Program-made: the position numbers and the translations under genes | From: Actinomycetota bacterium | GTDB lineage: Bacteria > Actinomycetota > Acidimicrobiia > Acidimicrobiales > Acidimicrobilacustridaceae | DNA: 64,000 nt | Direction of reading: 5' to 3' | Assembly: GCA_016185305.1 (NCBI GenBank) | Contig: JACPNV010000050.1 | Span: 7,040-71,039 of the forward strand | The notes under the pieces: model-generated | Databases searched by the model: none | The model's input: the letters and a program-made list of their open reading frames with translations, nothing else | Told to the model about the DNA's origin: nothing | Shown here: positions 17,874 through 42,407 of the stretch, piece by piece | How the letters are laid out: every line of letters begins with the position of its first letter | How positions within the stretch are numbered: the stretch's first letter is position 1

Positions 17874-17943
17874 GCCTCGCTCCTGACCGTGCCTCTGAGC
17901 GGGATTCCAACGTACCATGATCTAACACTCATGTCAGGGAGGC

Positions 17944-19179: not shown

Positions 19180-20455
19180 CGCCTGGCCGTGGCGGCGTGA
19201 GCAGCCCGAGCTCGATGAGCGTGGCGAACAGCTCGAGGCGCTTGGTCGAGAACCGGCCCTGGACCATCGCGAACAGCAAGACGAGCAGTACCACGGCCTC
19301 GGTCTCCGCGTCGCCGAAGCCGCGGGCGTCGAGCCCGCGAGCGAGCGCGCTCCGGCCGCTCTCGATGGCCGCGACCGACGCGCGCGCCATCTCGTCGCCC
19401 CGCGACATGGCTTCGATCCACATGCCGATGATCGAAGCTTCGGCCGTGTAGCTCTTGGCGTACGTTCGCAGCCAGATGCGCAGGGGTTGGTGATCGGAGC
19501 CGGCCTCGATGGGGATGTCGCGGAACGCGCCATGGAGCCGTTCGACGGCTTGCTTGGCCAGGATCTGGAAGATGTCGGCCTTCGACTCGAAGTATCGGTA
19601 GAAGAGTCCGTGCGAGACGTTCGCCCCGGCCACGATGTCGGCCACGCGGGCGGCGTGGTAGCCCCGATCGGCGAACACCTTCACCGAGGCGTCGAGGATG
19701 GCATCCCGTCGCTTGCTCGCGACGGGCCCCAGCGGTTTGCGCCCGGCGCCACCGGCGGGCTCGCCACCTGTGGTGCCGGCCAGTCGCGGCCGTGCCCGCC
19801 GGGGCGCTCGATGGACGTTGATGGCTGCGTCCGGTTGGAAGAGCGCCCGATGGAAGATGTCGGCGAGCGCGACGTTCACGTCCGACCGCCGCCATCCGCG
19901 CCCGCCGGTCGACGCCTTCTCGAGCAGCGTCACCATGCGGTTGGCCGGGCTCACGGTGCTGAGCAAGGCGCGGACGATGCCGTCGACCTCCCGCGGTGGC
20001 CGGGGCGAACCCTGGATCAGCGCACGGATCGAGGCGGACGTGTGCGTCGCGACCCGGGCCGCGCCGTCGGCCACGGCGTCGTCGATCCGCACCGCGGACT
20101 GGAACGCCAGGAACACCGGCTCGTACCGCTCGTAGATCTTGGCGTACCGATCGAGCCAGTCATGGAGGGCGTCCCATCCGGCCTGGTCGCCCGTGAACGG
20201 TGCGACGGCCTCGACGGCGGCGGCCAGCTCGCGCGCAACCCTCCCGGCGAGGTGCCGGAAGAGGTCGTCCTTGCCGGAGAAGTACTGGTAGAAGGAGACG
20301 CGCGAGCAGCCCGACCGTGCGGTGATCTGCTCGATGCTGCACTCGTGATAGCCCGCCTCGCTGAACGCGTCGGCCGCGGCATCGAGGATGCGTTCCTGGG
20401 TGCGCTGGCCCCGCGCGCCGACGTTCGGGTTGGAGGCGTACGGTGCGCGCCGCAC
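19124..20455 (-). CDS. Tandem (double) TetR-family transcriptional regulator
   Basis: Two TetR HTH modules in one frame: RILDAAADAFSEAGYHECSIEQITARSGCSRVSFYQYFSGKDDLF and AILDASVKVFADRGYHAARVADIVAGANVSHGLFYRYFESKADIF. The track ORF (901 aa) was trimmed because its upstream part is antisense to the CoA-transferase gene. Start GTG 20455 is tentative. Confidence 0.7.
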   Translation of the reverse strand: MRRAPYASNPNVGARGQRTQERILDAAADAFSEAGYHECSIEQITARSGCSRVSFYQYFSGKDDLFRHLAGRVARELAAAVEAVAPFTGDQAGWDALHDWLDRYAKIYERYEPVFLAFQSAVRIDDAVADGAARVATHTSASIRALIQGSPRPPREVDGIVRALLSTVSPANRMVTLLEKASTGGRGWRRSDVNVALADIFHRALFQPDAAINVHRAPRRARPRLAGTTGGEPAGGAGRKPLGPVASKRRDAILDASVKVFADRGYHAARVADIVAGANVSHGLFYRYFESKADIFQILAKQAVERLHGAFRDIPIEAGSDHQPLRIWLRTYAKSYTAEASIIGMWIEAMSRGDEMARASVAAIESGRSALARGLDARGFGDAETEAVVLLVLLFAMVQGRFSTKRLELFATLIELGLLTPPRPGVSVGRAAGPRPARRRCSG

Positions 20456-20593
20456 GATCGCCTCGGCGTCGTCTGCTTCGGGGGCGTCGGTTCCCAACTC
20501 GCTCCTGGCGTCGGAAGTCCCGGCGAGGGCCTTCTCTTCTAACGATGACGTCAGTAGAGTAGTTCGGTACTTGTCGCAGACGGGGGAGGGCTG

Positions 20594-21811
20594 ATGGCCA
20601 ACACGCTCGCAGGGATACGGGTGCTGGAGGTCGCGTCGTGGACGTTCGTCCCCGCGGCTGGCGCCGTTCTGGCCGACTGGGGCGCCGACGTGATCAAGGT
20701 CGAGCATCCGGTGATGGGTGACCCGCAGCGCGGCTTGATCTCGATGGGCCTCATCCCCGGAGGCGACAGCGCGGTCAACTACATCATCGAGCAACCGAAC
20801 CGTGGCAAGCGGAGCGTCGGGCTCGACATCGGCACCGAGCACGGGCGCGACCTGCTCTACAAGTTGGCCGAGGGCAGCGACGTCTTCCTCACCAGCTTCC
20901 TGCCCTCCGTGCGCCAGAGGTTGAAGATCGACGTCGACGACATCCGGAGCGTCAACCCGAACATCGTGTACGCCCGCGGCACCGGGCAAGGCCCGAAGGG
21001 TCCCGACGCCGGCAAGGGTGGGTATGACGGTGCGGTGTACTGGGGTCGGGCCGGCATCTCCGAGGCGTTGACGCCCGCCTGCGCCGAGTTCCCGATCGGC
21101 GGGCGGGCTGCGTTCGGCGACCTCGCCGGCGCGGTCGCGATCGCTGGTGGCATCACGGCGGCGCTGTTGAAACGAGAGCGCACCGGCGAGGCGCCGCTCG
21201 TCGACGTGTCGCTGCTCGGGTTCGGGATGTGGCAGCTCTCGCCCGACATCGTGGCGTCGGGGCTGTACGGCGGCGATCCGATGCCCAAGTTCGACCACAA
21301 GACCTCGCCCAACCCGCTCGTCGGCACGTACAAGACGGCCGATGACCGGTTCGTCACGTTGATGCTGTTGCAGTCCGACCGGTTCTGGCCCGATCTGTGC
21401 GAGCACATCGGTCGCGCCGATCTCGTCGACGACGAACGGTTCGCCGATGCGGGCGCGCGGTTCAACAACCACCGTGAGCTGATCGACGTCCTCGACGAGA
21501 CGTTCGGTCGCCGCACCCTCGCGGACTGGACCGATGCCCTGCAGACCTTGAAGGGCGTGTGGGCGCCGATGCAACGCGCGAACGAGTTGGTCGACGATCC
21601 GCAGGTCGAGGCCAACGGGTACCTCGCCCGGGTCACGAAAGATGCGGGCGTCGAGTACGACCTCGTGGCCAACCCCGTCCAGTTCGACGAGACGGCTGAC
21701 GAGCTCGTGCCCGCGCCAGAGCACGGCCAGCACACCGAAGAGATCCTTCTCGAGTTGGGAATCGGTTGGGACGAGATCGCCGAGGGCAAGGGGAGCGGCG
21801 CGATCCTGTGA
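20594..21811 (+). CDS. Family III CoA-transferase (CaiB/BaiF type)
   Basis: LAGIRVLEVASWTFVPAAGAVLADWGADVIKVEHP... typical N-terminus; 405 aa. Confidence 0.85.
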   Translation: MANTLAGIRVLEVASWTFVPAAGAVLADWGADVIKVEHPVMGDPQRGLISMGLIPGGDSAVNYIIEQPNRGKRSVGLDIGTEHGRDLLYKLAEGSDVFLTSFLPSVRQRLKIDVDDIRSVNPNIVYARGTGQGPKGPDAGKGGYDGAVYWGRAGISEALTPACAEFPIGGRAAFGDLAGAVAIAGGITAALLKRERTGEAPLVDVSLLGFGMWQLSPDIVASGLYGGDPMPKFDHKTSPNPLVGTYKTADDRFVTLMLLQSDRFWPDLCEHIGRADLVDDERFADAGARFNNHRELIDVLDETFGRRTLADWTDALQTLKGVWAPMQRANELVDDPQVEANGYLARVTKDAGVEYDLVANPVQFDETADELVPAPEHGQHTEEILLELGIGWDEIAEGKGSGAIL

Positions 21812-23505
21812 GCACCGAGGTCGAACCATCCGCCGCCCGGGCTGGGGCGAGAGAGACCGCGGCGACGTACGTGTCGGACAGGACGGTTGCCGATCTGCTG
21901 CTCGCCCGCCAGGACGACGATCGCGAGGCGCTGCGCTTCGAAGGCCAGACGTGGACCTGGCGGCAGGTGGTGGACGAGTCCGCGCGGCGGGCTCACGCGT
22001 TGCGGTCCTTCCGTGCCGAGGGCCCCTTCCACGTCGGCGTGATGCTCGAGAACGTCCCGGAGTTCGTGTTCCTCCTCGGGGGCGCGGCGCTGGTGGGCGC
22101 AGTGATCGTCGGCATCAACCCGACCCGCCGCGGCGCCGAGCGGGCCGCCGACGTGCGCCACACCGATTGCCAGCTCGTGCTCACCGACGAGCGCCGGGCC
22201 GAGGTGATCGGTAACGGCGTGGATCTCGACGCCGCGAGGATCCTCGATGTCAACGAGCGCGAGTGGCTCGACGTGGTCGCGTCGTGCTCCGCCGAGCCGC
22301 CTCGCACGATCGAGGTCACCCCGGACTCGCTGTACCTGCTGATCTTCACCTCGGGGTCAACCGGTGCGCCGAAGGCGGTCAGGTGCACGCAAGGGCGGAT
22401 GGCATTCGTCGTGCCCGGGTTCGACAGCGACGCGGTGCTGTACTGCGCCATGCCTCTGTTCCACGGCAACGCCTTGATCTCGAACTGGGTGCCGGCGATG
22501 AGCTGTGGCGCGACCATCGTCCTCAAGCGCCGCTTCTCGGCATCGGCGTTCCTCGACGACATCCGCGAGCACGGCGTCACGTTCTTCAACACCGTCGGCC
22601 AGGCACTGGCCTACATCCTCGCCACGCCGCCTACACCGCACGATCGCGACCATCCGTCTCTCGTCGTGCTGGCTCCCGAGGCCTCTGCTCCCGACATGAA
22701 GGCCTTCCAAGAGCGGTTTGGCTGCTTCGTGGTCGAAGGCTACGGCTCCAGCGAAGGTGCCATCCGTTTGGCGCCGACGGCCGGTACGCCGCGAGGGTCG
22801 TTGGGCAAGCCGTTGGGGAACGCGGACATCGCGGTCGTCGATCCGGCGACCGGTGCGGAGTGCTCGCGGGCGGTGTACGGCGCCAACGGCGGGCTGGCGA
22901 ACCCGGAAGAGGCGATCGGCGAGCTCGTGCGGCGCGATCCAGAGACGAGCTTCGCCGGCTACTACAACAACGACGAGGCGCAGGCCGAGCGCCTTCGCGA
23001 CGGGTGGTTCTGGTCGGGTGATCTCGCCTATCGCGACGAGGACGGCTTCTTCTTCTTCGCCGGCCGGACCGCAGACTGGATCCGCGTCGACGGCGAGAAC
23101 TTCGCGACCGCACCGGTCGAGCGCATCCTTCGCCGCCATCCCGATGTCGCGGAGGTCGCGGTGTTCGGCGTCCCCGACCCGCGAGCCGGCGACCGGGTCA
23201 TGGCGACGGTCGTCCTGGCGCCCGGCCGGTCGTTCGACGCGCCGGCGTTCCACTCGTTCCTCGACGAGCAACCCGACCTCGGGACGAAGTGGGCGCCCCG
23301 GTTCGTGCGGATCGTCGACCGACTTCCGGTGACCGCGACGAGCAAGGTCGACAAGCGGTCGTTGCGGGCGACGTGCTGGTTCGAGGGTGAGGTCTGGTGG
23401 CAGCCGGGCCGCGAGCCGGTCTGGCGGCCGATGAGCGACATGGACCGCGACGGGTTGCGGGCCGAGTTCGCCTCCCACGGGCGCGAGGCATTCCTCGGGC
23501 GCTGA
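21808..23505 (+). CDS. AMP-dependent acyl-CoA synthetase/ligase
   Basis: LIFTSGSTGAPKAV AMP-binding motif, GYGSSEG, WFWSGDLAYRDEDGFFFFAGR. GTG start overlaps the upstream stop (GTGA). Confidence 0.85.
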   Translation: MSTEVEPSAARAGARETAATYVSDRTVADLLLARQDDDREALRFEGQTWTWRQVVDESARRAHALRSFRAEGPFHVGVMLENVPEFVFLLGGAALVGAVIVGINPTRRGAERAADVRHTDCQLVLTDERRAEVIGNGVDLDAARILDVNEREWLDVVASCSAEPPRTIEVTPDSLYLLIFTSGSTGAPKAVRCTQGRMAFVVPGFDSDAVLYCAMPLFHGNALISNWVPAMSCGATIVLKRRFSASAFLDDIREHGVTFFNTVGQALAYILATPPTPHDRDHPSLVVLAPEASAPDMKAFQERFGCFVVEGYGSSEGAIRLAPTAGTPRGSLGKPLGNADIAVVDPATGAECSRAVYGANGGLANPEEAIGELVRRDPETSFAGYYNNDEAQAERLRDGWFWSGDLAYRDEDGFFFFAGRTADWIRVDGENFATAPVERILRRHPDVAEVAVFGVPDPRAGDRVMATVVLAPGRSFDAPAFHSFLDEQPDLGTKWAPRFVRIVDRLPVTATSKVDKRSLRATCWFEGEVWWQPGREPVWRPMSDMDRDGLRAEFASHGREAFLGR

Positions 23506-23665
23506 GCAGGACTTCCGCGCTGGCGCGGGTGCTCGGAGCCGTAACGGTGCTCTACGACACCCGTTCCGCCCCACGCGCCAGCGTTCAGGTACGACGGCAG
23601 GTCGTCGTGGAGCCCGGGTTGCGCGGCGATTCCATCCGACAATGCACCGGCGAGCTTCGCCGAGC

Positions 23666-23803
23666 TCATCTTCGCGTCGAGTTCTTCCTTCGGTTCCCAC
23701 ATCCGCTCGAACGGATGCCCGGGCCCTTACACACCGCGACGTCGGACACATCGTCGCAGTCGACGTATTCATCAGTCGCACAGCACGTGCAGTTGGCGAT
23801 CAT
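23666..23803 (-). CDS. Hypothetical Cys-rich 45-aa ORF
   Basis: MIANCTCCATDEYVDCDDVSDVAVCKGPGIRSSGCGNRRKNSTRR. GAGGA lies 7 nt upstream of the ATG. It sits at the 3' end of a 263-aa track ORF that otherwise looks degraded. Confidence 0.25.
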   Translation of the reverse strand: MIANCTCCATDEYVDCDDVSDVAVCKGPGIRSSGCGNRRKNSTRR

Positions 23804-24498
23804 GGTTCGTTCCTCACTGCCGGGACTTGTTCGTTGTTGGGCTCTGCGTGGGAAAGTCAGTCGATCGCATCCTTGGCAAACGCAAACGCTGACTGAGTGA
23901 CAGGAAGCATCGTGTAGATCCCCGTGCCGCCGTCGTCTCGGTCGAACTCCCACATCGGACGGCGACCGACGCGACGGCACGACACAGCGATGTGCTTCAA
24001 CGCGCGGGAAGTCCGCGAGGCGACGAGTATCCGGCATTGGCGGCGAGCTCAGCTCCGGTGATGCCACACAGGGAGCGGCGACGAAGCCGAGAATCAGACG
24101 CTTTGTTCGAGAGCTGTTTGCCTCGAGGATCCAGCGGGCGCGGGCTTCGTCGTCGGCCTTCCAGAACTCGGGATCGTTCCACGCATCGGGATACCGCGCG
24201 ATCGCTGCGGTGGAGTCGAGTATTGCGAAAGGCTCGGTCGCGTCGTTGCCGTTGCGGGCAGGAGGTTCCGGTGCTGCGGTCGGCGGCGTCTGGTCTGAGC
24301 TGATCGCGGCGACTGCCTCCGCGGCCCATCGTTGGAAGGCGGGAGCGAATCGACGCTCCATGAACGTGGACACCTCAATGATCTCGTGGGCGTGTTCGAT
24401 GGTTTGATTTGCCAGTGGGGCCGATTGCTTAACAATTGGCCCGGATCTTTGCTCCACGAGGTAAGATTCGGGCTCAGATCTAAGTCAAGCTGAGGAAG

Positions 24499-25362
24499 AT
24501 GACTACCACCGATCGACCAGTACCGAAGTGGGCTGCCGGCCTCATCGCGGTGCTGTCACGCGATCGCCCGGCGGTGGTCACTACCAGAGCGCTCGAAACG
24601 TACCTGGAGCAGGTCGGCTCAGATCGACGCGTCGATGAGGTGGCGAGCGACCTCCAGCAGCTCGGGTGGCTCGCGACGCTGCACATCAAGGGGGCGTGGG
24701 CATTCGTTCCGGCTGGTGAGGCCCGAGGCACGGATCCCTATCTCGACCTGCGCGGATGGCGTGAGCGCGATCCAGATGCAGTCTTCGCACTCGCGGGCGA
24801 GGCGGCCGCGTGGCACCTGGGGTATCTGCCTCGCCAGTTCGTTGGATCGGTCGCACTTTGGCTCCCGAAAGGAGGGCGTGTTGCCCACGGCTTGCGCCCG
24901 TATGTACGAGCAGTCCGCATCGGGTGGGGAGCTGGCGATCTCGGTCGGCTTCGACCAACGCCGAAGTTGTTGCGGAGGAAGGGTCTCGATCTCACCCAGT
25001 GGTCGAACGGCCTGCCGGCGCTCGGTCCGGAGGCGCTGCTTGTGCAGCTTGCCGCTCGCCCATCGTCGTTTCAGAGTTGGGCCGACCTTGTGGGTCAGCT
25101 TGAAGTTCTCGCGAGTGATTGCGATTCGCACCGGGTCGTAGACCTGCTCGCTGCGCAGTCCGCATCGGCGTGGCAGCGTGCGGCGTACCTCCTCGAGCGC
25201 GGGGGAGAACCCGAAGAGGCGATCGACGTGTTCGACCGCCGTCCTCACCGATCCTCTCCAGCGGTTCAGCTCGGCGAGGGCCCGATCGTGGAGTGGTCAA
25301 ACACCTTCAAGGTGAACGATCGCCTGGTCGCTCCGCTCCAACGGCAACTGGGCAAGGCGTGA
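24499..25362 (+). CDS. abiEi: Type IV toxin-antitoxin system AbiEi-family antitoxin
   Basis: 287 aa, immediately (3 nt) upstream of an AbiEii-like gene. N-terminal winged-helix-like region (VVTTRALETYL...DEVASDLQQLGWLATLHIKGAWAFVP) and a C-terminal domain of AbiEi architecture. Confidence 0.65.
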   Translation: MTTTDRPVPKWAAGLIAVLSRDRPAVVTTRALETYLEQVGSDRRVDEVASDLQQLGWLATLHIKGAWAFVPAGEARGTDPYLDLRGWRERDPDAVFALAGEAAAWHLGYLPRQFVGSVALWLPKGGRVAHGLRPYVRAVRIGWGAGDLGRLRPTPKLLRRKGLDLTQWSNGLPALGPEALLVQLAARPSSFQSWADLVGQLEVLASDCDSHRVVDLLAAQSASAWQRAAYLLERGGEPEEAIDVFDRRPHRSSPAVQLGEGPIVEWSNTFKVNDRLVAPLQRQLGKA

Positions 25363-25365
25363 GCG

Positions 25366-26265
25366 GTGCCGGCTCCGACGCTCTCGCGAGCACTGGTTGG
25401 TTTACACGGCGCCGGTCGCGCTGACACGTATGGGGCGGCTCTCCTTGACGTCGCGCAGGATCACCTGCTTTGGCTCCTCGCCGAACTTGGCCACTTCGAC
25501 GACGGCGCGCTGGTGTTCAAGGGTGGAACGTCGCTTCGCAAGATGTGCGGCTTGGGGGCGTCGGCCGCTTCTCCACCGATCTCGACTTCGTCGCGCCGAA
25601 CGACGACACGGTCCTCGACGTGTGCGCGAGCATCGATGGCGCATCGGTCGGTGGCTTCCAGTACGCACTCCAGGCAACCAGAGGTGATGGTCGGCATTGG
25701 ACTCTTCAGGTGCGGCATCCCGAGCTCGGTCAGCCGGACGTCGCCGCGTCGGTCGAATTCGCACGTCGCCCGCTCGTCCTCGAGCCGGAGCAACTCGCCT
25801 TCCTCGAGCTGCCGGTGCATCGTGGGTACGACATCGAGCTCCCCGCGCTACCGGTCATCGCGGAACCAGAAGCTTGCGCCGAGAAGTTGGCGCGCTATCG
25901 CCGGGTCGCTCTGGGTCGCGACGCGTATGACCTGGCCCAGTTCGCCGGTCGCGCGCTCAACGAGCCGTTGGTGCGGCGACTGTGGGTGCTGAAGGTCTGG
26001 GGCGATGTCGTCGACGACGGGCGAGGCGATAAGCCGCTCGATCCGACGGACATCCTGACGCCGCGCTCCGAGGCCGACTTCGCTCCGGAGTCGATCGGCA
26101 AGCTCACGAGGCCGGTCGACCTGCCCTGGTTGAGAGCGACGCGTCCGCGAGCGATTTGGCTTCCTCGAAGACCTTGACGACGACGAACACCGCTGGTCGG
26201 CCTGCGACCCGCGGCATCGATTCGAGATCGAGGTTGCGTTGGCTGGGGGTGGGTCCTCGATCTGA
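25366..26265 (+). pseudogene. abiEii: AbiEii/AbiGii-family nucleotidyltransferase toxin, disrupted by two compensating frameshifts
   Basis: LVFKGGTSLRKMCGLG (frame 1) continues as GGVGRFSTDLDFVAPN... in frame 0 after a G5 run at 25554-25558. It returns to frame 1 at about 26133 (WL|ERRVRERFGFLEDLDDDEHRW...), with the stop at 26263-26265. Confidence 0.7.
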
Positions 26266-26391
26266 CCGGATCGTCGGCGGCCCAGGGATCGGCCTTTCCG
26301 AACCGACTGCTCCTCAACGATGCGCGATCGCTCGACGGCGTCCGGGTCGATTGGCGTTCGGTCGAGCGGCCCCGGCGAACGCGTGGGACGG

Positions 26392-27092
26392 TTCGGCTAC
26401 CTCGCCGGGGAGCTTTCGTTTCGCCTGATCGCCGCTCGGCATCCCGTCGCAACGTCAAGCCAGTCCTCGGACCATCGCCGCCCACCGCGACACGTTCCGC
26501 CTGCTGCTGGGCTTCGCGCAACAACGCACCGGCAAGGTGCCGTCCCGGCTGGAGATCGACGACCTCGACGCCCCGCTCATCGCCGCGTTCTTGGATCACC
26601 TCGAAACCGAACGACACAACACGGTCCGAACCCGCAATGCCCGACGCGCCGCCATCAGGTCACTGTTCGACTACGCCGCGGTCTGTCACCCCGAACATGC
26701 TGCGGTCGTCCAACGGGTCTTGGCCGTCCCCCAGAAGATCACCGACGACAAGACCATCGCGTTCCTTCATGACGACGAGATCGAAGCGCTCGTCGCCGCA
26801 CCGGACCGCGGCACCTGGGAAGGGCGACGAGAACACGCGCTGGTCTACCTGGCCATCCACACCGGTCTCCGTGTCTCCGAGCTCACCGGCCTCAACTGTG
26901 CCGATGTCCATCTCGGCACCGGGCCACACCTGCGCTGCGACGGCAAAGGACGCAAGCAGCGTGCCGTGCCGTTACCTTCACGCCGAAATCGCCATCAAAG
27001 AACGAGCGCTCGCCAAGACCACCCCCGCCCACACTCCACCAGGCCGCTACCGCCCGAAAGACGACCCGCTTGCCTTCATCGAAGTCCTGTGA
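26392..27092 (+). pseudogene. Tyrosine recombinase/integrase remnant (N-terminally truncated, frameshifted, internal deletion)
   Basis: ELSFRLIAAR | ASPRTIAAHRDTFRLLLGFAQQRTGK...LAIHTGLRVSELTGL...GKGRKQRAVPL, then a direct jump at about 26970 to YLHAEIAIKERALAKTTPAHTPPGRYRPKDDPLAFIEVL* in another frame. The HxxR box region is missing. Confidence 0.7.
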
Positions 27093-27620
27093 TTATCCGA
27101 ACCACACCCCGACCACCGCTTCGCCCCAGGCCCAACCGCAGGCTTCCCGGCGGTGATGGGGAGTGCGTGGGGGCGCAGCCCCCAGGCAACTGGGGGTTTG
27201 GGTTGGGACGTGCGTTGTGAGGCTGGATGTGCCACCGCTTGGCACGGATGGGCGGCTCGGCGGCACGCCTTCTGTATGAACACGAACAGAACCAAGACAC
27301 GCCGCACCCGGTCCCTGCACCCTCTGGGGGAGGACGCATCACCGAGGGCCCATCTGGACAGGGCCTTCGACGGGACCGCCGGGGGAGGCGAACCGGAGGC
27401 TTCGGGGGGAGCCTCCGTGCCAGAGGGAGGCGGCCAGCCCACGGCCCTGGGGCTGGCCGCCTCCGCGCGTCCGAGGGTCAGCCGTCCAGGACGACGACTG
27501 GGGCAGACGACTGGGTCGAACGGCTGGGTGCGTTCTGGGTTGGTGCCCGGCTCTCGGCGACCCGTGGTGCTCGCGCTGTCCGAGGCAGCCCATCGCTTCC
27601 GCGCCGTATCCTCGACGGGC

Positions 27621-28349
27621 ATGAGCGACCCGACGAGCAAGAGTCCCGCATCGACCGCAACGGACACCGTCCCGAGCGTCGAGGAAGCGCTCGGGCGGCT
27701 GCAGATGCCGCTGGTCGAAGCGATGATGACCCAGCGCGCCGTGCGCCGCGTGCTGCCCGATCCGGTGGACGATGCCGTGATCCTCGAGTGCATCGGGCTG
27801 GCGTTGCGCGCACCCACCGGATCGACCGGCCAGAACTGGGAGTTCGTCGTCGTCAAGGACCAACGCGTCAAGGAGCAACTCGCCGCGCGCTATCGCCAGG
27901 CATGGTCGCTCTACGGCGGCATCGGCAAGCGCCTCGCCGGCGAGGACGAGTCGATGCTGAAGATCCTGCGGGCCGTGCAATGGCAGGTGGACAACTTCAC
28001 CGAGATCCCCGTGCTTGTCGTGGCCTGCCTGCGGGCCGGCGTGCGCGAGGGGAGGATCCCGTACATGCCCACACCGCACGTCGGCGCATCATCGTTCTTC
28101 GGATCCATCTACCCCAGCGTGCAGAACCTCCTGCTGGCGGCGCGGGCGATGGGCTTGGGAGCTTCGTTGATCACCCTGCCGCTGTGGAGCGTGACATCAG
28201 CCCGATCGATCCTCGGCCTGCCCTTGTCGGTCACGCCGTGCTGCATCGTCCCGCTCGGGTGGCCGAGAGGTCGCTACGGGCCGACGACGCGGCGGCCCGT
28301 CGAGGACGTGGTGCATCTCGACTCCTACGGCAACCGCGCCTGGCGGTAG
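27621..28349 (+). CDS. Nitroreductase-family protein
   Basis: MTQRAVRRVLPDPVDDAVILECIGLALRAPTGSTGQNWEFVVV... Trimmed from the 398-aa track ORF to ATG 27621. Confidence 0.8.
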   Translation: MSDPTSKSPASTATDTVPSVEEALGRLQMPLVEAMMTQRAVRRVLPDPVDDAVILECIGLALRAPTGSTGQNWEFVVVKDQRVKEQLAARYRQAWSLYGGIGKRLAGEDESMLKILRAVQWQVDNFTEIPVLVVACLRAGVREGRIPYMPTPHVGASSFFGSIYPSVQNLLLAARAMGLGASLITLPLWSVTSARSILGLPLSVTPCCIVPLGWPRGRYGPTTRRPVEDVVHLDSYGNRAWR

Positions 28350-28363
28350 CGGCGCGCGCGAAA

Positions 28364-28390
28364 GGCCCCGAACCGGAAGGGTTCGGGGCC
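28364..28390. terminator. Bidirectional stem-loop between convergent nitroreductase and lanA genes
   Basis: Perfect 11-bp stem GGCCCCGAACC / GGTTCGGGGCC with a 5-nt loop. On the minus-strand transcript it is followed by UUUCG. Confidence 0.6.
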
Positions 28391-28419
28391 GAACGCAGAT
28401 GGCAGTGCTTGCGTTGCGA

Positions 28420-28584
28420 TCAGACGCGTGCGCGGAGGCCGAGCAGGTTGGTGCCGCACCACGCGACGCTGACCGAGCTGTTGTCCTTCTTGCCGCACTT
28501 GTAGACGCTGATCGAGCTGCGGGCTTCGAGCGGGCTGCCGGCGCCAGCGCCGGACATCGCCTGGAGTTCGAGAACGGATGCCAT
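28420..28584 (-). CDS. lanA: Class III lanthipeptide precursor peptide (54 aa)
   Basis: MASVLELQAMSGAGAGSPLEARSSISVYKCGKKDNSSVSVAWCGTNLLGLRARV. Has a VLELQ leader motif and two S-x2-S-x3-C motifs (SSISVYKC, SSVSVAWC). AAGGAGG lies 8 nt upstream of the ATG, which sits 5 nt after the LanKC stop. It is hidden inside track ORF 28420..28659. Confidence 0.8.
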   Translation of the reverse strand: MASVLELQAMSGAGAGSPLEARSSISVYKCGKKDNSSVSVAWCGTNLLGLRARV

Positions 28585-28589
28585 GGGAT

Positions 28590-31193
28590 TCACCTCCTTT
28601 CGAGGGCTCGGGGCGAGGCCGGTGAGACCAGCAACGACACGTCGTCGCGCGGGGCCCACGGCTCAGACCGGAGGAACGGGAGACTGAGAGGACGCTCGCC
28701 GAGAGCTGACCCGAGGGCCAGCAGCACGCCGGCAGAGCCGGTGGCGAGATCCATCGAGAGACGGGCGAGACCGTCACCCACGAACGCCACGTGGCCTTCG
28801 TAGGGGGCGGCGTGCCATGCCATGCAGGCAACATGCGCTTCCACATCTGCGGCCGGCACGGGTTGCAGGGAGCGCAGGAAGAGCAGGAGCCCGGCGCGAC
28901 CGTTGAAGAGCCCGGACTGGATGACGACATCGCCGGTGGCGGCCAGGCGGATGCCGTCGAGCTGCTGGGCCAGCGTCTCGTCGGGAACGCGGTCGAGGAG
29001 CTCGCGCAGCACGATGCCGATGCCGGCGCTGCCGACGTCGAGGTACGGGAGGACGCGCCAACCGTCATCGACCTGGACAGTTCCGCCGTCTGTTCGTGTG
29101 CAGCGATCGAGATCGGCGCGCACGGCACGTTCGGCCGCATCGAGCAAGGCGGGGTCGGCCGTGTGCTCGTGCAAGCGCAGCATGAACAGCGCCAGGCCCG
29201 ACCATCCCCGCATGAGCCCGGCCGGCTGGGCACGATAGGACTCATCGTCCAGCCGGCTGATGCCGTGCGTGGCCAGCTCGATCGCCAGATCGAGGTAGCG
29301 AGGCTCGTGGGCGGTGCGGTGGAAGTGCAGGAGCGCGAGCCCGATGCCAGCGATGCCGCTGTAGAGGCTCAGGTCATCAGGGTCCAGCGGTTGCTCGAAC
29401 ACCCGTGCCAGCGCGTCGAGCGCTTCGGTGTGACGGCCGCACCGGTCGAGTGCGTAGGCGATGCCGGTTGCGCCGTCATAGAAGCCGGGTCGCAGGTCGT
29501 CCGCGGCCATGGTGGTTCGCACCAGCCAGTCGAGATGGGCGGAATCGACGGGCGCACTCGTCTCGTGCAACGCCCACACCACACCCGCGGCACCGAACGC
29601 CATGGCGAGCCCGCCGCCGTCACCCGCGAACTGTTGCGGGTCGCCGGGGAACAGCCGGTCGGTTCGGTCAGGTGTCGCGCTGGCGTTGATGGCGCGTGCC
29701 ATCGACGTGCGGAGCTGCTCCCACCTCGGGAGGCCCTGGCGGGGCCAGATCTCGTCGCGCCACGCACGATCCACGTTGGTCACGACGATCTCGCCGAGGT
29801 CGCGCCGGACGGCCTCGCCGAAGCCGGAGGGAACCGGGAACCGGGCTTCGACGGCTCCGATCAGCTCGTCGAGCTTCGCGGGATCCCACGGGACGAGCTC
29901 GACGAACGGCAAGAAGAGCGCGAGCCGCAGGGCGCCGAGCGCGAAACGATCGATGGCGAAACCGGTGCGGTCCGCCGGAGCGGCATAGCCGGCGGCGCCG
30001 AGCGTGCGATCGAAGTCCTCGTCCACCCGGTGGCCGAGCTCGAAGTCGACGAGGCACACACGCCCGTCGGGTCGCACGATCACGTTGCGCGGGTGGAGAT
30101 CGCCGATCACGACGCCGCGCGCGTGGACGGCACGGACGGCGGCATCGACAGCGTCGACGGCGGAGACCGCCCATTCGCAGTAGGCGGAGATGGCGTCGCC
30201 GTCTGGCCGGGCCGAGATCATCGGGTGGCGTTGGGAGAGCTCGTCCGCGAGCATCGTGCCTTCCACGTACTCCTCAACCAGGAAGTGGTGCTCCCACAGG
30301 GTGCGGCGTTCGTGCACTGCCGGCACGCAGTCGAGGCCGGCGAGCGTGCTCAGGATGCGGTGCTCGCGTTCGAGGCGAGCCACCGCATCGGTGCCGGCGC
30401 CGTCGAGCCCGGCGAGCGGCCGGGCCTCTTTGAGCACGAGGCGGGCGCCGGTCTCCGGATCGCTCGCGAGGTAGACGCCACCGCCGTTCGAGAAGTGCAT
30501 CGCCTGCTCGATCCGATACGGCAGTGGCTCGCCCGAGTCGCTGGTTCGCTCCGAGATCGCATCCATGAGGAACGACGGCACGGCGACCCAGCCGGGTGCC
30601 GAGAATCGCGGCGCGCGGACGTCGGGGACGAGGTTGCCGTCCGGATCCTCGATGGCGGGCACGATCTCGCCGGTTGCGGTGGTGCACTCCATCGAGACGA
30701 AGCCGCCATAGCGGACGTACAGCGGCCCCTCGTTCCACCGGACATCGCTCAGGATGTACGGACCGGGCTCGCCCGACAGCTCGGCGCCCAACTCGGCGAG
30801 GCAGCGCTCGAGGTCTTGCTCGTTGACCGGGTAGATCGTGATGAACTTCCCCGAACCCGACCGGTCGGCGTACTTGGCGTTCTTGGCGAGGAACGCGGCC
30901 TGGGTGCTGAGGAACTTGAAGCACAGCCCCCGCTCGACGCAGTGGTCCCACGTTGTCGTCAACACGTCGAGGGCGTTGGTCACGGATGCCGACACGTGGA
31001 TCTTCCATCCTTGCTTCGGAAGCTCGATGGCTTCGTGATGGATGACCGTCCACACGCCTGCGGTCGAAGCGTCCCAGCCGTCCGGCGCGGTGCGCTCGAT
31101 CGCCGCCAGCAACGAACCGTCGGCGCCGCCGGCGGCGGGGGCGTCGTAGAAGACCGGGTCGGTCAGGCAGAAGGCTTCATGGTCAGCGTTCAC
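28590..31193 (-). CDS. lanKC: Class III lanthipeptide synthetase (LanKC: lyase + Ser/Thr kinase + Zn-ligand-less cyclase domains)
   Basis: Lyase GWKIHVSA. Kinase VLKEARP, IGDLHPRNVIV, LVDFELG. The C-terminal LanC-like repeats carry GWSGLALF and DLATGSAGV where class I/II/IV enzymes have WCxG and CHG, so there are no Zn ligands. Start GTG 31193 (VNADHEAFCLTDPVFYDAP) has GGAG 8 nt upstream; the track ORF extends to 31337. Confidence 0.85.
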   Translation of the reverse strand: MNADHEAFCLTDPVFYDAPAAGGADGSLLAAIERTAPDGWDASTAGVWTVIHHEAIELPKQGWKIHVSASVTNALDVLTTTWDHCVERGLCFKFLSTQAAFLAKNAKYADRSGSGKFITIYPVNEQDLERCLAELGAELSGEPGPYILSDVRWNEGPLYVRYGGFVSMECTTATGEIVPAIEDPDGNLVPDVRAPRFSAPGWVAVPSFLMDAISERTSDSGEPLPYRIEQAMHFSNGGGVYLASDPETGARLVLKEARPLAGLDGAGTDAVARLEREHRILSTLAGLDCVPAVHERRTLWEHHFLVEEYVEGTMLADELSQRHPMISARPDGDAISAYCEWAVSAVDAVDAAVRAVHARGVVIGDLHPRNVIVRPDGRVCLVDFELGHRVDEDFDRTLGAAGYAAPADRTGFAIDRFALGALRLALFLPFVELVPWDPAKLDELIGAVEARFPVPSGFGEAVRRDLGEIVVTNVDRAWRDEIWPRQGLPRWEQLRTSMARAINASATPDRTDRLFPGDPQQFAGDGGGLAMAFGAAGVVWALHETSAPVDSAHLDWLVRTTMAADDLRPGFYDGATGIAYALDRCGRHTEALDALARVFEQPLDPDDLSLYSGIAGIGLALLHFHRTAHEPRYLDLAIELATHGISRLDDESYRAQPAGLMRGWSGLALFMLRLHEHTADPALLDAAERAVRADLDRCTRTDGGTVQVDDGWRVLPYLDVGSAGIGIVLRELLDRVPDETLAQQLDGIRLAATGDVVIQSGLFNGRAGLLLFLRSLQPVPAADVEAHVACMAWHAAPYEGHVAFVGDGLARLSMDLATGSAGVLLALGSALGERPLSLPFLRSEPWAPRDDVSLLVSPASPRALERR
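28593..28599 (-). promoter_or_regulatory. Shine-Dalgarno AAGGAGG for lanA, immediately upstream of the lanKC stop codon
   Basis: Minus strand reads ...GAA AGG AGG TGA atccc ATG. Perfect SD with an 8-nt spacer. Confidence 0.6.
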
Positions 31194-31297
31194 GGTGGGC
31201 TCCGGTTGCGGGATGCGACTCACGAATGAGGCGTGCCGCCGCCGTTCCACTCGATGGCACACCTCGGCCGGCGCCGGGCGATCGATCTCGGTGCGCG

Positions 31298-32536
31298 TCA
31301 GGCGCGAGGCCACAGACCGACGCCGTCGGGGAACCACAGGTTCGCGGCGATGGTCTCAGGCGGGTCCGGTGCTCCGCTGGTGAAGGTGATGCGGCGGACC
31401 GACCCGGCCCCGTCGCCCGGCCCGAAGCCGTAGGTACCGCCGGTGACGATCCCGATGTCGGCGTAGTACAACGTGCCGTCTGGTCCCGAGGAGATGCCGA
31501 TCGGGGTCCCGGTCGAGAACGGCGTCGCTCCGAGCTGCTCGCCGGCTGGCGGCTGGAGGACGGTCTGGACGAACTGCCAGTCTTGGTCGTACTCGTTGAT
31601 GCTGCCGGTGATCACGCTTGCCACGAAGAAGTGGCCGTCGACGCCGCGGGTGATGCCCGAAGGTGAGATCAACCCATGATCGCCCGACGACAGCACGCGG
31701 GCCTTCGTGACCGCGTCGGCCAGGGGCGAGCCGAGGTTGTCGGTCTTTCCGCACCCGCCCGCAGCGGTTGCCGACGTCGGGAACGGTCCCGGGTACCGGA
31801 ACACGCCGCCCGCGGTCGCCTCGGGGTCTTGCGACGGCCGCGGCGAGTTGAGGTACAGCGCGTCGTCCTGATCGACGTAGATCCCCTGCCCGGTGGCGAG
31901 TCGGAGGTCGAGCTTGCAGTACGCGACCCGATCGCTGTCGTAGGGCGGGAACCAGATCGTGAGCTGGCCATTGGCCGCGTCGGTGGCCTCGTTGCCGATG
32001 TCGGTGGTGACGATGCGGCCGTCGGAGAGCACGCCGCATCCGTAGTTGTCGGGGTCGTCGGGCGTCGGTTGGTAGGTCGGGACGAGCCGGGCTACTCGCT
32101 TCACCGCAAGCTCGCCGACGCGAGCGCCCGTCAGCTCGAAGACGCCCCATCCTGGCGGTGGTTGGGGTTGGCGAGTGTCCTCGCCGGTGACGAGGTACTG
32201 CTTGCCGTCCCTGGTGAACGCGCACATCTGCCCGTTGATGTCCCACCCGTTCGGATCGGTCGGGGCGCCACCGAAGCTCTTGTTGGCAGTGTTGACCTTC
32301 TGCGAACGAAACGGCGGGTCGGTCTCGTACGCCCAGAGGTTGTTGCCCTCGGCGCTGAACAGGATGCTCCCGGGCGCGGGACGGGCCGCAGCGAGGGGTG
32401 TGGTCGCGGTCGTGCCGGCTGGTCCGGCCGTCGGCACGGTGCTCGACGTGGGGGACGCGCACGCGGCCAGCGTGACGACGACCACGACGGTCGCGGCGAG
32501 AGCGGCGCGCCGTGCCGGGTGATCGGTCCCTTCCAT
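31298..32536 (-). CDS. Lipoprotein, probable beta-propeller fold, unknown function
   Basis: MEGTDHPARRAALAATVVVVVTLAAC lipobox, then repeated strand-like segments (LWAYE, YLVTGED, RIVTTDIG, ALYLNS, HFFVASV, TLYYADIG). Same strand as lanKC and 104 nt upstream of it. Confidence 0.55.
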   Translation of the reverse strand: MEGTDHPARRAALAATVVVVVTLAACASPTSSTVPTAGPAGTTATTPLAAARPAPGSILFSAEGNNLWAYETDPPFRSQKVNTANKSFGGAPTDPNGWDINGQMCAFTRDGKQYLVTGEDTRQPQPPPGWGVFELTGARVGELAVKRVARLVPTYQPTPDDPDNYGCGVLSDGRIVTTDIGNEATDAANGQLTIWFPPYDSDRVAYCKLDLRLATGQGIYVDQDDALYLNSPRPSQDPEATAGGVFRYPGPFPTSATAAGGCGKTDNLGSPLADAVTKARVLSSGDHGLISPSGITRGVDGHFFVASVITGSINEYDQDWQFVQTVLQPPAGEQLGATPFSTGTPIGISSGPDGTLYYADIGIVTGGTYGFGPGDGAGSVRRITFTSGAPDPPETIAANLWFPDGVGLWPRA

Positions 32537-32616
32537 GACCGCCCAGTATTGCGAGCATCGGCGATCTCGGGACGGCGGAAGCTGCCCATGGCGACACCGC
32601 AGGGAATAATGAGCGA

Positions 32617-35600
32617 GTGGCCGCACCTCTCGGCTCGGATGCGATGGTCGGACGGGCAGACGTCCTCGAGCGATTGCTCCAGACCTGTGCGAAGGCCACC
32701 GACGGGTACAGCGCGGTCGTCGTGATCACCGGCGAGGCGGGCGTCGGCAAGTCGCGGCTGTGTGCCGAGGTCGCCGGCCGCGCCCGGACGGTGGGGTTCG
32801 AGGTTGCCGAGGCGCGGTGCTGGTCGCACGGCGGCGCCCCGCCCTTGTGGCCGTGGCGCGACCTCTTGAAGCAGGCCGATCCCGCGGGCGCGCCGCTCGG
32901 GTCGGGCGAGCGCCGGGTGACGTTGACGGGTTGGCCCGGCCTGACCGCGGGCTTCGATGTGTTCGAAGGTGCTGCCGACCGGCTGGGTCGGGCCTGCCGG
33001 CGCAACCCGTGGCTGCTCGTGCTCGACGACCTTCACGAAGCCGACGAAGGCACGCTCCTGCTCACGCGGTTCCTCGCGTCGCAGCTCCGGTCGTCGCGAC
33101 TTGTCGTGCTGGTCACGCTCCGGTCGGGGGCGACTGTTCGCGGATCGCGGGAGGAGTTCCTCGTGAGCGAGGTCGAGCGCGAATCGGCGGTGATCGATCT
33201 CGCCGGCCTCGACCGCGACGCGCTCGCGGAACTGGTTGCCGGGTCCGGGCATCCGGCCGACGAGCGCACGGTCGATGTGCTGCTCCAGATCACCAAGGGC
33301 AACCCGCTCGTCGCGCATTCCGTGCTCCGCGCCGCGCCGCCCGGTCCGCTTGACAGCACGCTCTCGCTGGGTGTGGCCGAGGCGTTCCAGCGCCGCCTCC
33401 GATCGGTCGACCCGGCCGTCACCGCGGTGCTGGGTCGCGCTGCCCTCCTCGGCACGACGGCCGCAGTTGACGAGATCGCGCTCGTCGCCGAGCGGTCGCC
33501 TGACGACGTGCGCGCCGCGGCAATCATCGGTCAGCAGCTCCAGGTGCTGCTGGCATCGTCGCCCGCGACGATCGAGTTCACCCACGACCTCGTCCGCGCC
33601 GCCGTTGAGGCGACGCTTGCTCCGGCCGAGCGGCTGGAGACCCACGCCCGCGCGGTCGAGGCCGTCCTCCGGAGCGAGCGGTCCGCCGATGGAGTCCTCC
33701 GCGCGGTGCGCCACGCGCTGGCCGCGTGTTCGCGTTCAGACGCGGACGCGGCGCGGGCCGTCGAGCTTGCCCAACAGGCCGCGGCGATCCTCATGGATCG
33801 GCACGCCTTCAGCGACGCGGCCGGCCTGCTGGGTCAGGCAATCGATGCACTGGAGCAGACCGGTCAGAAGGTGCCGGCCGGGCTGCGCATCGAGCGTGCT
33901 CACGCCATGCTCGCCGCCGGCCGGGTCGGCGAAGCGCACCACTTGGCGGTGATCGCGACCCAGTCGGCCGAGGCTGAAGGCGATCCGGTGGACTTCGCCG
34001 AGGCGGCGGCAGGGTTGGGTGGGATCTGGATCAACAACGTCCGCTCGCCGGTCGAGCAGGCGCGGATGCTCGCGATGCAGCGGGCCGCGCTGGCGGGGGT
34101 GCCACCCGAACATCATCGGCTCGCGGTTCGTCTCTACAGCCGAGCGCTCAGCGGCGCCATGTTCTGGGAGGGGGCTCCGATCGATCCTGTCCTCGAGGTC
34201 ATCGCGATGGCGCGTCAGGTGCGAGATCCTGCCGTGCCGTTGGAGGTCTTCTCCAACGTGCACACCGCGCTGCTCGGTCCGGATTGGAGCGAGCTGCGAC
34301 TCGAGCTGGCCGAAGAGATGGTGCGTCTGGCCGGCGATGTCAACGGCGGCATCTATGCGCTCATGGCGTACTGCTGGCGGGCGGTCGACCTGTTCCTCGT
34401 CGGGTCCGATCAAGCCGACGGCGCGCTCGCCGACCTTCGTGGACCCGCTGAGGCATTGCAGTGCCTGTCGGTGCTGTACGTCGTGCGCCTGGTCGAGACG
34501 ATGCAGCTGATCATGGCCGGCCGTGTCGAAGAAGCCGAGCAGGCGGCGCTGGCCGCGCTCGAGCTGGGCCAGCGGGCGGAGGACGCCGACGCTCTCGGCT
34601 ACTTCGGTGTGCAACTCCTCGCGATCCGCTGGTTGCAGAGCCGGGATGCCGAGATGCTCACGATGCTCGAGACGATCGCCGGCTCCGAGAACGTGATCCG
34701 CGGTGATCAGGGATTCAACGCGGCCGTCGCTGCGGTCGCGGCGCGCGCCGGTCAGATGGACGTCGCTCGGCGCTACCTCGCCCGGGTGTTGGAGGGGCCG
34801 GGCGTGGACGGCATCCCGAAGTTCAGCACCTGGCTCGCCACCCTGGCGGCCGTGGTCGAGGCGGCGTCGGCACTCGGTGATGAGGGTGTGTCCGCCGCGA
34901 CCTACGACTTGCTGGTGCCGTATGGGGGACTGCCGGTCCGCCCGTCGCTCGCCGTCGTCTGTTTCGGTTCGACACAGCATGTGCTGGGGCAGGCAGCGCG
35001 GACCGCGGGACGGCTCGACGCGGCCATCTCGCACTTCGAGGCGGCCATCGACGCCAACGTCAAGCTGGGCAACCTGCCGCGCGCGGCGATGTCTCGCATG
35101 GAGCTTGCGGCAGCGCTCGGTCGGCGCGACGGGCCGGGCGATCGCGACCAGGCTCGCACTCGGAGGCGGGAAGCGATCGCGGCGGCCGCCCGGCTCGGGC
35201 TGGACGAGCTGGCGCGGCAGTGGAGCGATCGGGAAGGCGAGGACGCGCACGAGGTTCGCGCCGGGCCGATCGCAGCGCCTGCGACGCAGGGCGCGCCGGG
35301 AAGCGGGGCGCTCACGATCCGCCGCGATGACCGCCGGTTCGTGGTGGAGCACGACGGCGACAAGGTCGCGTTCGCTGACCGGGTGGGCATGCGCTACCTC
35401 GCGCAGCTCGTGGCCAACCCTGGCCAGTCGATCACCGCGCATGCCCTGATGACCGGCGAGGAGGAACGAACGGTCGCGCGGCAGGCCGTGCTCGATCGTG
35501 CGGCGCGCGACTCGCTCGAAGCCCGTGCCCGTGAGTTGGCCGCCCTGATCGCCACGGCTCGTGCCGATGGCGATGTCGTGGTGCAGGGGCAGCTCGAGGA

Positions 35601-35817
35601 CGAGTTCGACGTCATCACCGACGAGCTTCGCAAGGCGACCGCTCTGGGCCAGCGCGACCGCTTCTTCGGCGACGACGCCGAGCGGGCGCGCACCGCGGTC
35701 CGCAAGGCGATCGTGCGAGCCGTGAACGAGATCGAGGCCGCGCTGCCCACGGCGGGCGAGCTGCTGCGCTCCTCGATCACCACCGGCATCGAGTGCCGCT
35801 ACGACCCGCCTCGGTAG
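32617..35817 (+). CDS. Large STAND/AAA_16 ATPase with TPR-like repeat region and a conserved C-terminal module; no LuxR HTH seen
   Basis: Walker A ITGEAGVGKSRL, Walker B LLVLDDLHEADE, and a long helical repeat region. C-terminus: FVVEHDGDKVAFADRVGMRYLAQLVANPGQSITAHAL ... ERARTAVRKAIVRAVNEIEAALPTAGELLRSSITTGIECRYDP. Divergent from the lipoprotein-lanKC-lanA unit. Confidence 0.7.
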   Translation: MAAPLGSDAMVGRADVLERLLQTCAKATDGYSAVVVITGEAGVGKSRLCAEVAGRARTVGFEVAEARCWSHGGAPPLWPWRDLLKQADPAGAPLGSGERRVTLTGWPGLTAGFDVFEGAADRLGRACRRNPWLLVLDDLHEADEGTLLLTRFLASQLRSSRLVVLVTLRSGATVRGSREEFLVSEVERESAVIDLAGLDRDALAELVAGSGHPADERTVDVLLQITKGNPLVAHSVLRAAPPGPLDSTLSLGVAEAFQRRLRSVDPAVTAVLGRAALLGTTAAVDEIALVAERSPDDVRAAAIIGQQLQVLLASSPATIEFTHDLVRAAVEATLAPAERLETHARAVEAVLRSERSADGVLRAVRHALAACSRSDADAARAVELAQQAAAILMDRHAFSDAAGLLGQAIDALEQTGQKVPAGLRIERAHAMLAAGRVGEAHHLAVIATQSAEAEGDPVDFAEAAAGLGGIWINNVRSPVEQARMLAMQRAALAGVPPEHHRLAVRLYSRALSGAMFWEGAPIDPVLEVIAMARQVRDPAVPLEVFSNVHTALLGPDWSELRLELAEEMVRLAGDVNGGIYALMAYCWRAVDLFLVGSDQADGALADLRGPAEALQCLSVLYVVRLVETMQLIMAGRVEEAEQAALAALELGQRAEDADALGYFGVQLLAIRWLQSRDAEMLTMLETIAGSENVIRGDQGFNAAVAAVAARAGQMDVARRYLARVLEGPGVDGIPKFSTWLATLAAVVEAASALGDEGVSAATYDLLVPYGGLPVRPSLAVVCFGSTQHVLGQAARTAGRLDAAISHFEAAIDANVKLGNLPRAAMSRMELAAALGRRDGPGDRDQARTRRREAIAAAARLGLDELARQWSDREGEDAHEVRAGPIAAPATQGAPGSGALTIRRDDRRFVVEHDGDKVAFADRVGMRYLAQLVANPGQSITAHALMTGEEERTVARQAVLDRAARDSLEARARELAALIATARADGDVVVQGQLEDEFDVITDELRKATALGQRDRFFGDDAERARTAVRKAIVRAVNEIEAALPTAGELLRSSITTGIECRYDPPR

Positions 35818-35922
35818 CGCCGAGGACGAGGGTGGGCGCCCGGCCCGGCGATCTGCCAAGCTGCCAGGACCTCACACGCGGGCCGGCACCGGCCCGACGA
35901 CGACTTGGGAGCGCGCTTTCTG

Positions 35923-36315
35923 ATGATGGATCTCGTGATCGAGGTGGACAACGAGCCCGGATCGCTGGCGCGGGTGGCGGCCGCCATCAGCGACGCGGGG
36001 GTGAACATCTCCGCCGCCACCTGCACCGGGCCCGGAGACAAGGCCGCCATGCACATCCTGGTGCCGCACGCCGAAGCCGCCAAGCATGCGCTCGCGACCG
36101 CCAACATCACCGTGACCAGCCAGCGCGAGGTGGTCGTGGTCGACGCCGAAGATCGCCCCGGCGTGCTCGCCGACATGGCTCGCATGATCGCCGAGGCCGG
36201 CATCGACCTCGACCTGGTCTACGTGGCCACCCGAACCCGCCTGGTGTTCGGCTCGCCCGACCTCGACGCCCTGAAGGACATCCTCGGCGTTGAAGCCAGA
36301 GCATCTGTCTCCTGA
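35923..36315 (+). CDS. ACT-domain protein (two ACT-like repeats)
   Basis: LVIEVDNEPGSLARVAAAISDAGVNI and VVVVDAEDRPGVLADMARMIAEAGIDL. Confidence 0.65.
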   Translation: MMDLVIEVDNEPGSLARVAAAISDAGVNISAATCTGPGDKAAMHILVPHAEAAKHALATANITVTSQREVVVVDAEDRPGVLADMARMIAEAGIDLDLVYVATRTRLVFGSPDLDALKDILGVEARASVS

Positions 36316-36650
36316 CAGGTCCCTGGCGGTCGCCGGCGCTTGCCACATCCACGCAAAATTGGGCTCTGTTGTCGTTTCCGTGGGTCCTCGGCGGTCTGCT
36401 GCCATCGCAGCGATGGGCGCTGGCCCACCCCTCGGCACCCTCTGCCCGCCAGGAGAAACCCGCGGCTACGGCGTGGCCGCCGATCGTTCGGAGCAGTTCA
36501 CGGGCATCGCCGATCCAGCGTGCGCATCTTCCCGCCCGCCGAGCGGAACCATGCCCAACCTGGTGACCGGCTCTCCGCTGGCGCTCCGAGCGCTCCCCAT
36601 CGCCGGCGGGCTCCCTGGCGGTCGCGCCGCCGGCCGGCGCCGCGAGCGCC

Positions 36651-37739: not shown

Positions 37740-37904
37740 GGGCACCCGCGCAGTTTGGCGCTCCGCGCCGCTGGCGGCAACGGTGGGTTCAGTTGCCGTG
37801 ATATCTGCCGATGACAACAGGGGGATGCCCGGCAGCCGTGTGGCAACACGGTTTGACGGGCGGCACCGGCGAGCGCAACTGACCCTGAACCCTCGAAAGG
37901 TCAC

Positions 37905-40653: not shown

Positions 40654-40670
40654 GCACAGATCGTAAGCGG

Positions 40671-42356: not shown

Positions 42357-42407
42357 GTGGGAACCCCCGACTCGAAACCGAACGGTACTTGGACTTCCAA
42401 GTACCGT

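Follow-up and report, generated by a model that had tools for sequence, protein, structure and literature searches.

The closest described counterparts of the locus analysed here are SapB (RamS/RamC) of Streptomyces coelicolor and AmfS of S. griseus. Their precursors have an N-terminal leader with an xLxLQ motif and a core with two S-x2-S-x3-C units in tandem, and the precursor gene lies directly after the gene of a RamC-type class III synthetase (LanKC). In SapB and AmfS, a GD linker joins the two units and one or two residues follow the last Cys, and the net charge of SapB is about 0. Two more general features of such systems are of interest here: prolyl-oligopeptidase-family enzymes trim the leaders in some class III systems, and changes at variable positions over a fixed ring scaffold are the usual pattern in the cores of RiPPs.

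The NCBI annotation class 'SapB/AmfS family' contains more than 4,000 sequences (2026 paper, PMC13380574). One of them is durhapeptin (DurA/DurKC) from Streptomyces durhamensis, which was made by co-expression in Escherichia coli and is described in the same paper as a highly hydrophobic peptide with two labionins, an LLDLQ-type leader, two SXXSXXXC motifs, a LanKC partner and a transporter gene in its cluster (PMC13380574). Labyrinthopeptins, catenulipeptin and curvopeptin likewise combine an ILELQ-type leader recognition motif with dehydration and cyclisation in C-to-N direction and the conversion of S-x2-S-x3-C units to lanthionine or labionin (PMC8341899, PMC7268733). Here, the ILELQ motif is essential for processing by LabKC, and class III processing in general runs from C to N (PMC8341899). 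Depending on the peptide, the Sx2Sx3C unit becomes lanthionine or labionin (PMC7268733), a choice that is not predictable from the sequence of the synthetase (PMC13380574).

A comparable gene pair is encoded on the minus strand of the 64-kb window, the whole stretch of DNA that was analysed and to which all coordinates refer. The precursor gene lanA occupies 28420..28584, a span that takes in the TGA stop, and translation of 28584..28420 yields an ATG ORF of 54 codons plus TGA with the product MASVLELQAMSGAGAGSPLEARSSISVYKCGKKDNSSVSVAWCGTNLLGLRARV. At the junction of the two genes, the lanKC stop codon TGA (28592..28590) is followed by a 5-nt spacer, atccc (28589..28585), and the lanA start codon ATG (28584..28582). 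A Shine-Dalgarno sequence, AAGGAGG, can be read on the same strand at 28593..28599, within the last lanKC codons and 8 nt 5' of the ATG, and the relative L086 carries the same stretch, AAAGGAGGTGAATCCCATG. lanA and lanKC, directly upstream of it, are probably transcribed together, with translational coupling between the two. The first-pass annotation of this DNA had proposed a shorter ORF within 28420..28659 that starts 5 nt past the LanKC stop and is preceded by AAGGAGG, and we found each of these elements in the sequence. Its description of the gene as hidden applies to the mechanical ORF list, in which a 79-aa GTG ORF takes up the whole of 28420..28659, but not to the public record: a database search returned an exact match to the peptide, GenBank MBI2705712.1, annotated as 'SapB/AmfS family lantipeptide' on a 78-kb contig of an Actinomycetota MAG.

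The translated precursor starts with a leader whose recognition motif VLELQ (residues 4-8; 28561..28575, on the minus strand like the other elements of lanA) fits the pattern (I/L/V)(L/F)(D/E)LQ. Further downstream, ring unit 1, SSISVYKC, with S23, S26 and C30 in S-x2-S-x3-C spacing (residues 23-30; 28495..28518), and ring unit 2, SSVSVAWC, with S36, S39 and C43 in the same spacing (residues 36-43; 28456..28479), are joined by the five-residue basic linker GKKDN (residues 31-35; 28480..28494). The last Cys is followed by an 11-residue C-terminal tail, GTNLLGLRARV (residues 44-54; 28423..28455). From Ala21 onward, the computed net charge of the peptide is about +5. The leader motif, the two ring units and the residues after the last Cys had all been recognized in the first-pass annotation, and all three are borne out by the translation.

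Profile searches place the peptide in the SapB/AmfS family, in both cases by a narrow pass: it scored 27.9 bits with the Pfam model RamS (PF19402; cut-off 24.3, E-value 3.2e-6) and 26.1 bits with the NCBIfam model SapB_AmfS_lanti (NF033212; cut-off 25). As both matches span residues 1-43 only, neither extends into the tail, which the known family model does not cover. Together with the equivalog match of the neighbouring LanKC, these scores uphold the original assignment as a class III precursor adjoining LanKC. The accompanying term 'labyrinthopeptin-type' signature is right in that the S-x2-S-x3-C pattern is present, but the profile files the peptide with SapB/AmfS. Whether the rings would contain lanthionine or labionin is not readable from the sequence.

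The adjacent gene lanKC (28590..31193, minus strand) encodes an 867-aa class III lanthionine synthetase (lyase-kinase-cyclase). Its start was taken from the public gene call, and the resulting product corresponds exactly to GenBank MBI2705713.1. Pfam analysis revealed a RamC_N domain (3.4e-74) together with Pkinase and LANC_like domains. With the equivalog model for class III LanKC (NF038151), the protein reached 1008.9 bits at a cut-off of 575, whereas its score with the class IV LanL model (NF038150) was 371.6 bits and below the cut-off of 650. Both the GWKIH lyase motif and the DFE kinase motif are kept. A motif-level check of the cyclase part found no CHG-type zinc-ligand motif, with GSAG or GRAG at the repeat positions. 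Taken together, the domains, the NF038151 score, the two catalytic motifs and the absence of CHG indicate that the enzyme is an intact class III lanthionine synthetase.

Thus defined, the locus resembles SapB and AmfS in the xLxLQ motif near the N-terminus, the two tandem S-x2-S-x3-C units, the position of lanA directly after a RamC-type LanKC and the passed cut-offs of the family models, and relatives of the peptide keep a ramCSAB-like gene order. It differs from them in several respects. The core is only about 32 % identical to a SapB-like precursor, the peptide has a five-residue GKKDN linker, an 11-residue tail and a charge of about +5, neither an ABC pair nor a RamR-type regulator was found in the window, and a streptomycete host is improbable. 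Durhapeptin shares the NCBI annotation class, the leader type, the two ring motifs and the LanKC partner with the window peptide, which in contrast is cationic and tailed and has no transporter gene in the window. In the case of labyrinthopeptins, catenulipeptin and curvopeptin, the likeness lies in the motifs, beyond which there is no significant sequence relation; the NCBIfam model lanthi_III_b stayed below its cut-off for the peptide (23.9 vs 30).

To place linker and tail, the peptide was compared with its relatives. A word-indexed search returned 9 proteins. With a profile, searched exhaustively against 1.84 billion representatives (E <= 0.001), 10 representative proteins were obtained, among them a repetitive 1,751-aa protein that was left out of the family count. 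A profile search of a 5.8-billion set gave 41 homologous clusters, and 39 sequences were examined. Nearly all hits are from metagenome assemblies and carry no informative names. The same architecture was observed in 39 of 39 family sequences, namely S..S...C, a linker, a second S..S...C and a tail of 6-11 residues. The linker is exactly five residues long in every one of them and mostly follows G-K-x-x-x, with GKKDN itself present in 8. In an alignment of 16 sequences, S23, S26, C30, G31, S36, S39 and C43 are invariant and K32 of the linker is at least 90 % conserved; in the leader, L5 and Q8 are invariant, while V4 and L7 are conserved to at least 90 %. A close subclade is characterized by CGKKD(N/S/T)S and CGT(N/S)(L/I), with G44 and T45 invariant.

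As a contrast set, 80 LanKC homologues in GTDB genomes (40-49 % LanKC identity) were inspected for small ORFs on their downstream side, which gave 29 distinct precursor types. The great majority of these (27/29) end 0-2 residues past the last Cys, and GKKDN is absent from all 29. LanKC identity tracks the relatedness of the peptides, with 50-86 % within the family vs 40-49 % for the GTDB loci. An inspection of small ORFs downstream of LanKC homologues had been proposed as a check in the first-pass annotation, and in every relative with context a conserved precursor directly follows LanKC. The statement that linker and tail are unusual holds in comparison with the precursors beside other LanKC genes, but the two traits are not unique, being shared by the 39 members. 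Both the basic linker and the tail are conserved, and together they mark off a small, mostly metagenomic subfamily, which is likely to come from Acidimicrobiia.

Long tails were found in two of the 29 types: L001 (Micromonosporaceae MAG, 8646..) ends in QTIGDYH, 7 residues past the last Cys, and L005 (Streptomyces sp. NPDC000594, 8669..) in PGVVASFDDRLH, 12 residues past it. Their LanKCs rank with the nearest GTDB homologues (47-49 % identity), but their linkers and tails are unrelated, the tails are acidic or neutral, and both peptides are outside the MASVL...CGK...CGTN family. A tail may be a recurrent feature of class III precursors.

The closest relative, L086, comes from another sample, with 89 % identity to the window for LanA and 86 % for LanKC. 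A Nei-Gojobori comparison of the two lanA genes counted 3 synonymous and 6 non-synonymous differences, which are few; the six amino-acid changes are all off the ring residues. Informative with respect to selection is the comparison with L082 (69 % identity): within the first 8 codons of the leader, there are 4 synonymous and no non-synonymous differences, and dN/dS is about 0.2 for the core plus four tail codons. Among more distant members, saturation has been reached at the variable core positions (dN/dS about 1), and the ring scaffold is fixed.

Downstream of lanA, RNA folding revealed a G+C-rich hairpin with a perfect 11-bp stem, GGCCCCGAACC-CUUCC-GGUUCGGGGCC, followed by UUU (28364..28390, minus strand). 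It lies 30 nt past the lanA stop, forms the centroid structure and has a z-score of -2.77 (81-nt stretch); the stem is kept in L086, with a different loop. Beyond the hairpin, a nitroreductase-family gene converges on lanA, and the hairpin is a probable bidirectional terminator between the two. A consensus promoter and terminator scan of 27900..33000 made no calls, the hairpin included. L086 shares this ABC-less end, with the same hairpin stem and the same convergent gene end. Downstream context is available for six relatives (L083, L087, L088, L089, L091 and the JGI contig carrying P0005), and all of them show the gene order lanKC-lanA-ABC-ABC, which is ramCSAB-like. A tblastn search with transporters of relatives detected no RamAB-type ABC exporter in the 64-kb window. 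Likewise, we found no response-regulator or RamR-type gene beside the lan genes in the window, and neither a protease gene nor a DNA-binding regulator adjoining them.

Upstream of lanKC, at a distance of 104 nt, a 412-aa predicted lipoprotein with the lipobox LAAC is encoded on the same strand (31298..32536). It has a signal peptide and weak Pfam matches to NHL and Vgb_lyase (virginiamycin-B-lyase-like) beta-propellers. We considered the lipoprotein as a conserved partner and rejected it, as no homologue flanks the 80 other LanKC loci. The plus-strand gene 32644..35817, divergent from lipoprotein, lanKC and lanA, encodes a large STAND-type AAA_16 ATPase that has TPR repeats; no helix-turn-helix domain was detected in it, and it was therefore rejected as a LuxR-type regulator.

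On the other side, an AbiEi antitoxin-like gene (24499..25362, plus strand) precedes an ORF that faintly matches AbiEii (25366..25992, plus strand), and the GC content in 23500..26600 is 0.63-0.67 vs 0.69 around it. This AbiE-like stretch lies 2-4 kb away from lanKC-lanA and could represent a small islet of mobile or defence genes. Genes of acyl-CoA metabolism flank the lan genes on both sides (17926..23505 and 36651..42917), including two family III CoA-transferases, an acyl-CoA dehydrogenase and an AMP-dependent ligase. The flanks also encode a PAS-GGDEF-EAL protein (37857..40289) as well as a methylmalonyl-CoA mutase accompanied by a MarR regulator. In the clusters of the relatives, none of the genes named for the two flanks was seen. 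For the mutase, the best relatives with a name (75-79 % identity) come without exception from Acidimicrobiales/Acidimicrobiia MAGs, and this single protein marker tentatively suggests a host within the Acidimicrobiia. An ORF at 48291..49493 (plus strand), 20 kb from the lan genes, has a weak Peptidase_S9 (prolyl-oligopeptidase-family) match, and nothing links the two. The one tRNA call in the window, ARAGORN 'tRNA-???' at 48365..48457, lies inside this ORF and is probably false. An Rfam scan of the window gave no matches.

Three other readings of the locus have to be weighed against a functional precursor gene. The real gene could be the 79-aa GTG ORF, or the short ORF could be a chance frame in G+C-rich DNA. 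The long form is what the mechanical ORF list gives, and high GC breeds spurious ORFs, with 160 ORFs (>= 30 aa) overlapping 20000..37000. However, the 25 extra codons of the GTG form overlap the 3' end of lanKC, and a start with M-A/S-S-V-L is common to nearly all homologues, so that the ATG is the correct start and the 79-aa ORF was rejected as the true gene; the ATG, moreover, has a perfect Shine-Dalgarno sequence. With respect to chance, a six-frame translation of the 64-kb window contains 150 single [ST]xx[ST]xxxC matches but only one double S..S...C unit, and the two ring motifs of lanA are the only ones within an ORF having an upstream xLxLQ leader motif, which makes a chance origin unlikely. 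The matches to two curated HMMs and the conserved position after LanKC argue in the same direction, and we consider this reading exceedingly improbable in either form.

A second possibility is that lanKC-lanA is an orphaned or decaying remnant, which has lost the pair of ABC exporter genes and whose peptide is no longer usefully made or exported. Since no RamAB-type exporter was found in the window and each of the six relatives whose downstream side is known carries the ABC pair after lanA, the product may possibly be poorly exported or the locus decaying; in the window, the place of the pair is taken by the hairpin and the convergent nitroreductase-family gene. The AbiE-like toxin-antitoxin pair and the GC dip 2-4 kb off suggest local rearrangement. 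On the other hand, both ORFs are intact, the Shine-Dalgarno sequence is perfect and the catalytic motifs are kept. The same ABC-less layout is present in L086, from a second sample, where the changes in LanA spare the ring residues, and the visible DNA is 64 kb of a genome in which an exporter could lie elsewhere. Decay is a quite unlikely explanation. The locus could also encode a true functional orthologue of SapB/AmfS, a secreted surfactant morphogen that raises the aerial hyphae of a filamentous actinomycete. The Pfam and NCBIfam assignments and the LanKC-LanA-ABC-ABC order in relatives are in favour of it, and so is the critical role of hydrophobicity in the morphogen activity of related peptides, as stated in the durhapeptin paper (PMC13380574). 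Against it stand the low identity of the core to the SapB-like precursor and the closest relatives of the methylmalonyl-CoA mutase, which are Acidimicrobiales/Acidimicrobiia MAGs. Acidimicrobiia are not known for aerial mycelium. The charge of about +5 vs about 0 for SapB and the lack of both a RamR-type response regulator and the ABC pair in the window argue in the same way. A morphogen role just like that of SapB seems less likely in view of the charge, the likely host and the absence of ram-type genes, and we rate a true orthologue as rather unlikely.

We therefore favour the reading of lanA as a genuine gene for a class III precursor of the SapB/AmfS (RamS) family, which is very probably correct; the gene is probably coupled with lanKC, and ring formation would be guided by the leader. 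The following steps are modelled on characterised class III systems. LanKC would dock on the N-terminal leader via VLELQ, its kinase domain would phosphorylate Ser residues of the core, and perhaps Thr45, and the N-terminal lyase domain would eliminate the phosphate to leave dehydroalanine. The zinc-free cyclase would then add Cys43 and after that Cys30, each within its own S-x2-S-x3-C unit, leading to two non-overlapping rings. These could be lanthionines (Ser23-Cys30 and Ser36-Cys43) or labionins (Ser23/Ser26/Cys30 and Ser36/Ser39/Cys43). As no protease gene was found near the lan genes, the leader would probably be trimmed by proteases encoded elsewhere. The predicted product consists of two rings joined by the five-residue basic linker and ends in 11 hydrophobic-cationic residues outside the rings; its predicted charge is about +5.

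Going one step further, we can tentatively propose a distinct class III subfamily with the pattern MASVL...S..S...C-GKxxx-S..S...C-G(T/N)N..., encoded by uncultured, probably non-mycelial Acidimicrobiia. Fixed basic linker and conserved ring-free tail would make the product a cationic amphiphile, which might act as an antimicrobial or membrane-active signal and not as a SapB-type developmental surfactant, and which in the lineage of the window would do so with no dedicated ABC exporter. This is a possibility suggested by sequence features, and we hold it with considerably less confidence than the identity of the gene itself.

What is new about the locus is limited to its membership in an unstudied, tailed branch with a basic linker: the gene was already annotated, and no new chemistry is implied. 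In the searchable literature, which leaves aside figures and most supplements, no paper contained the diagnostic sequence strings of the family, and the searchable supplements of Walker et al. (2020), a large RODEO survey, contain none of these strings. A literature search found no paper joining lanthipeptide, class III and Acidimicrobiia. A mention of a 'C-terminal tail' in the class III literature concerned lasso peptides.

The locus reveals neither new enzymology nor a new type of system and is an ordinary uncharacterised lanthipeptide locus, in a lineage without a characterised lanthipeptide in the searchable literature. Its practical value is modest and lies in a two-gene cluster of lanKC and lanA that is directly co-expressible. 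The locus nevertheless raises the question of whether a LanKC tolerates and ignores a long C-terminal extension, which bears on the C-to-N processing model. It also raises the questions of whether a basic linker biases the rings to lanthionine or labionin, and of what role SapB-like peptides play in actinobacteria without aerial hyphae.

A variation in gene number was seen in the relative L089, on a 596-kb metagenomic contig. Here, a single LanKC gene is followed by two tandem precursor paralogues, both members of the family, one at 5775..5924 (…CGKKGWSTLSGANCGNNIAAFR) and the other at 6001..6147 (…CGKKGWSTLSGSYCGNLTAFR).
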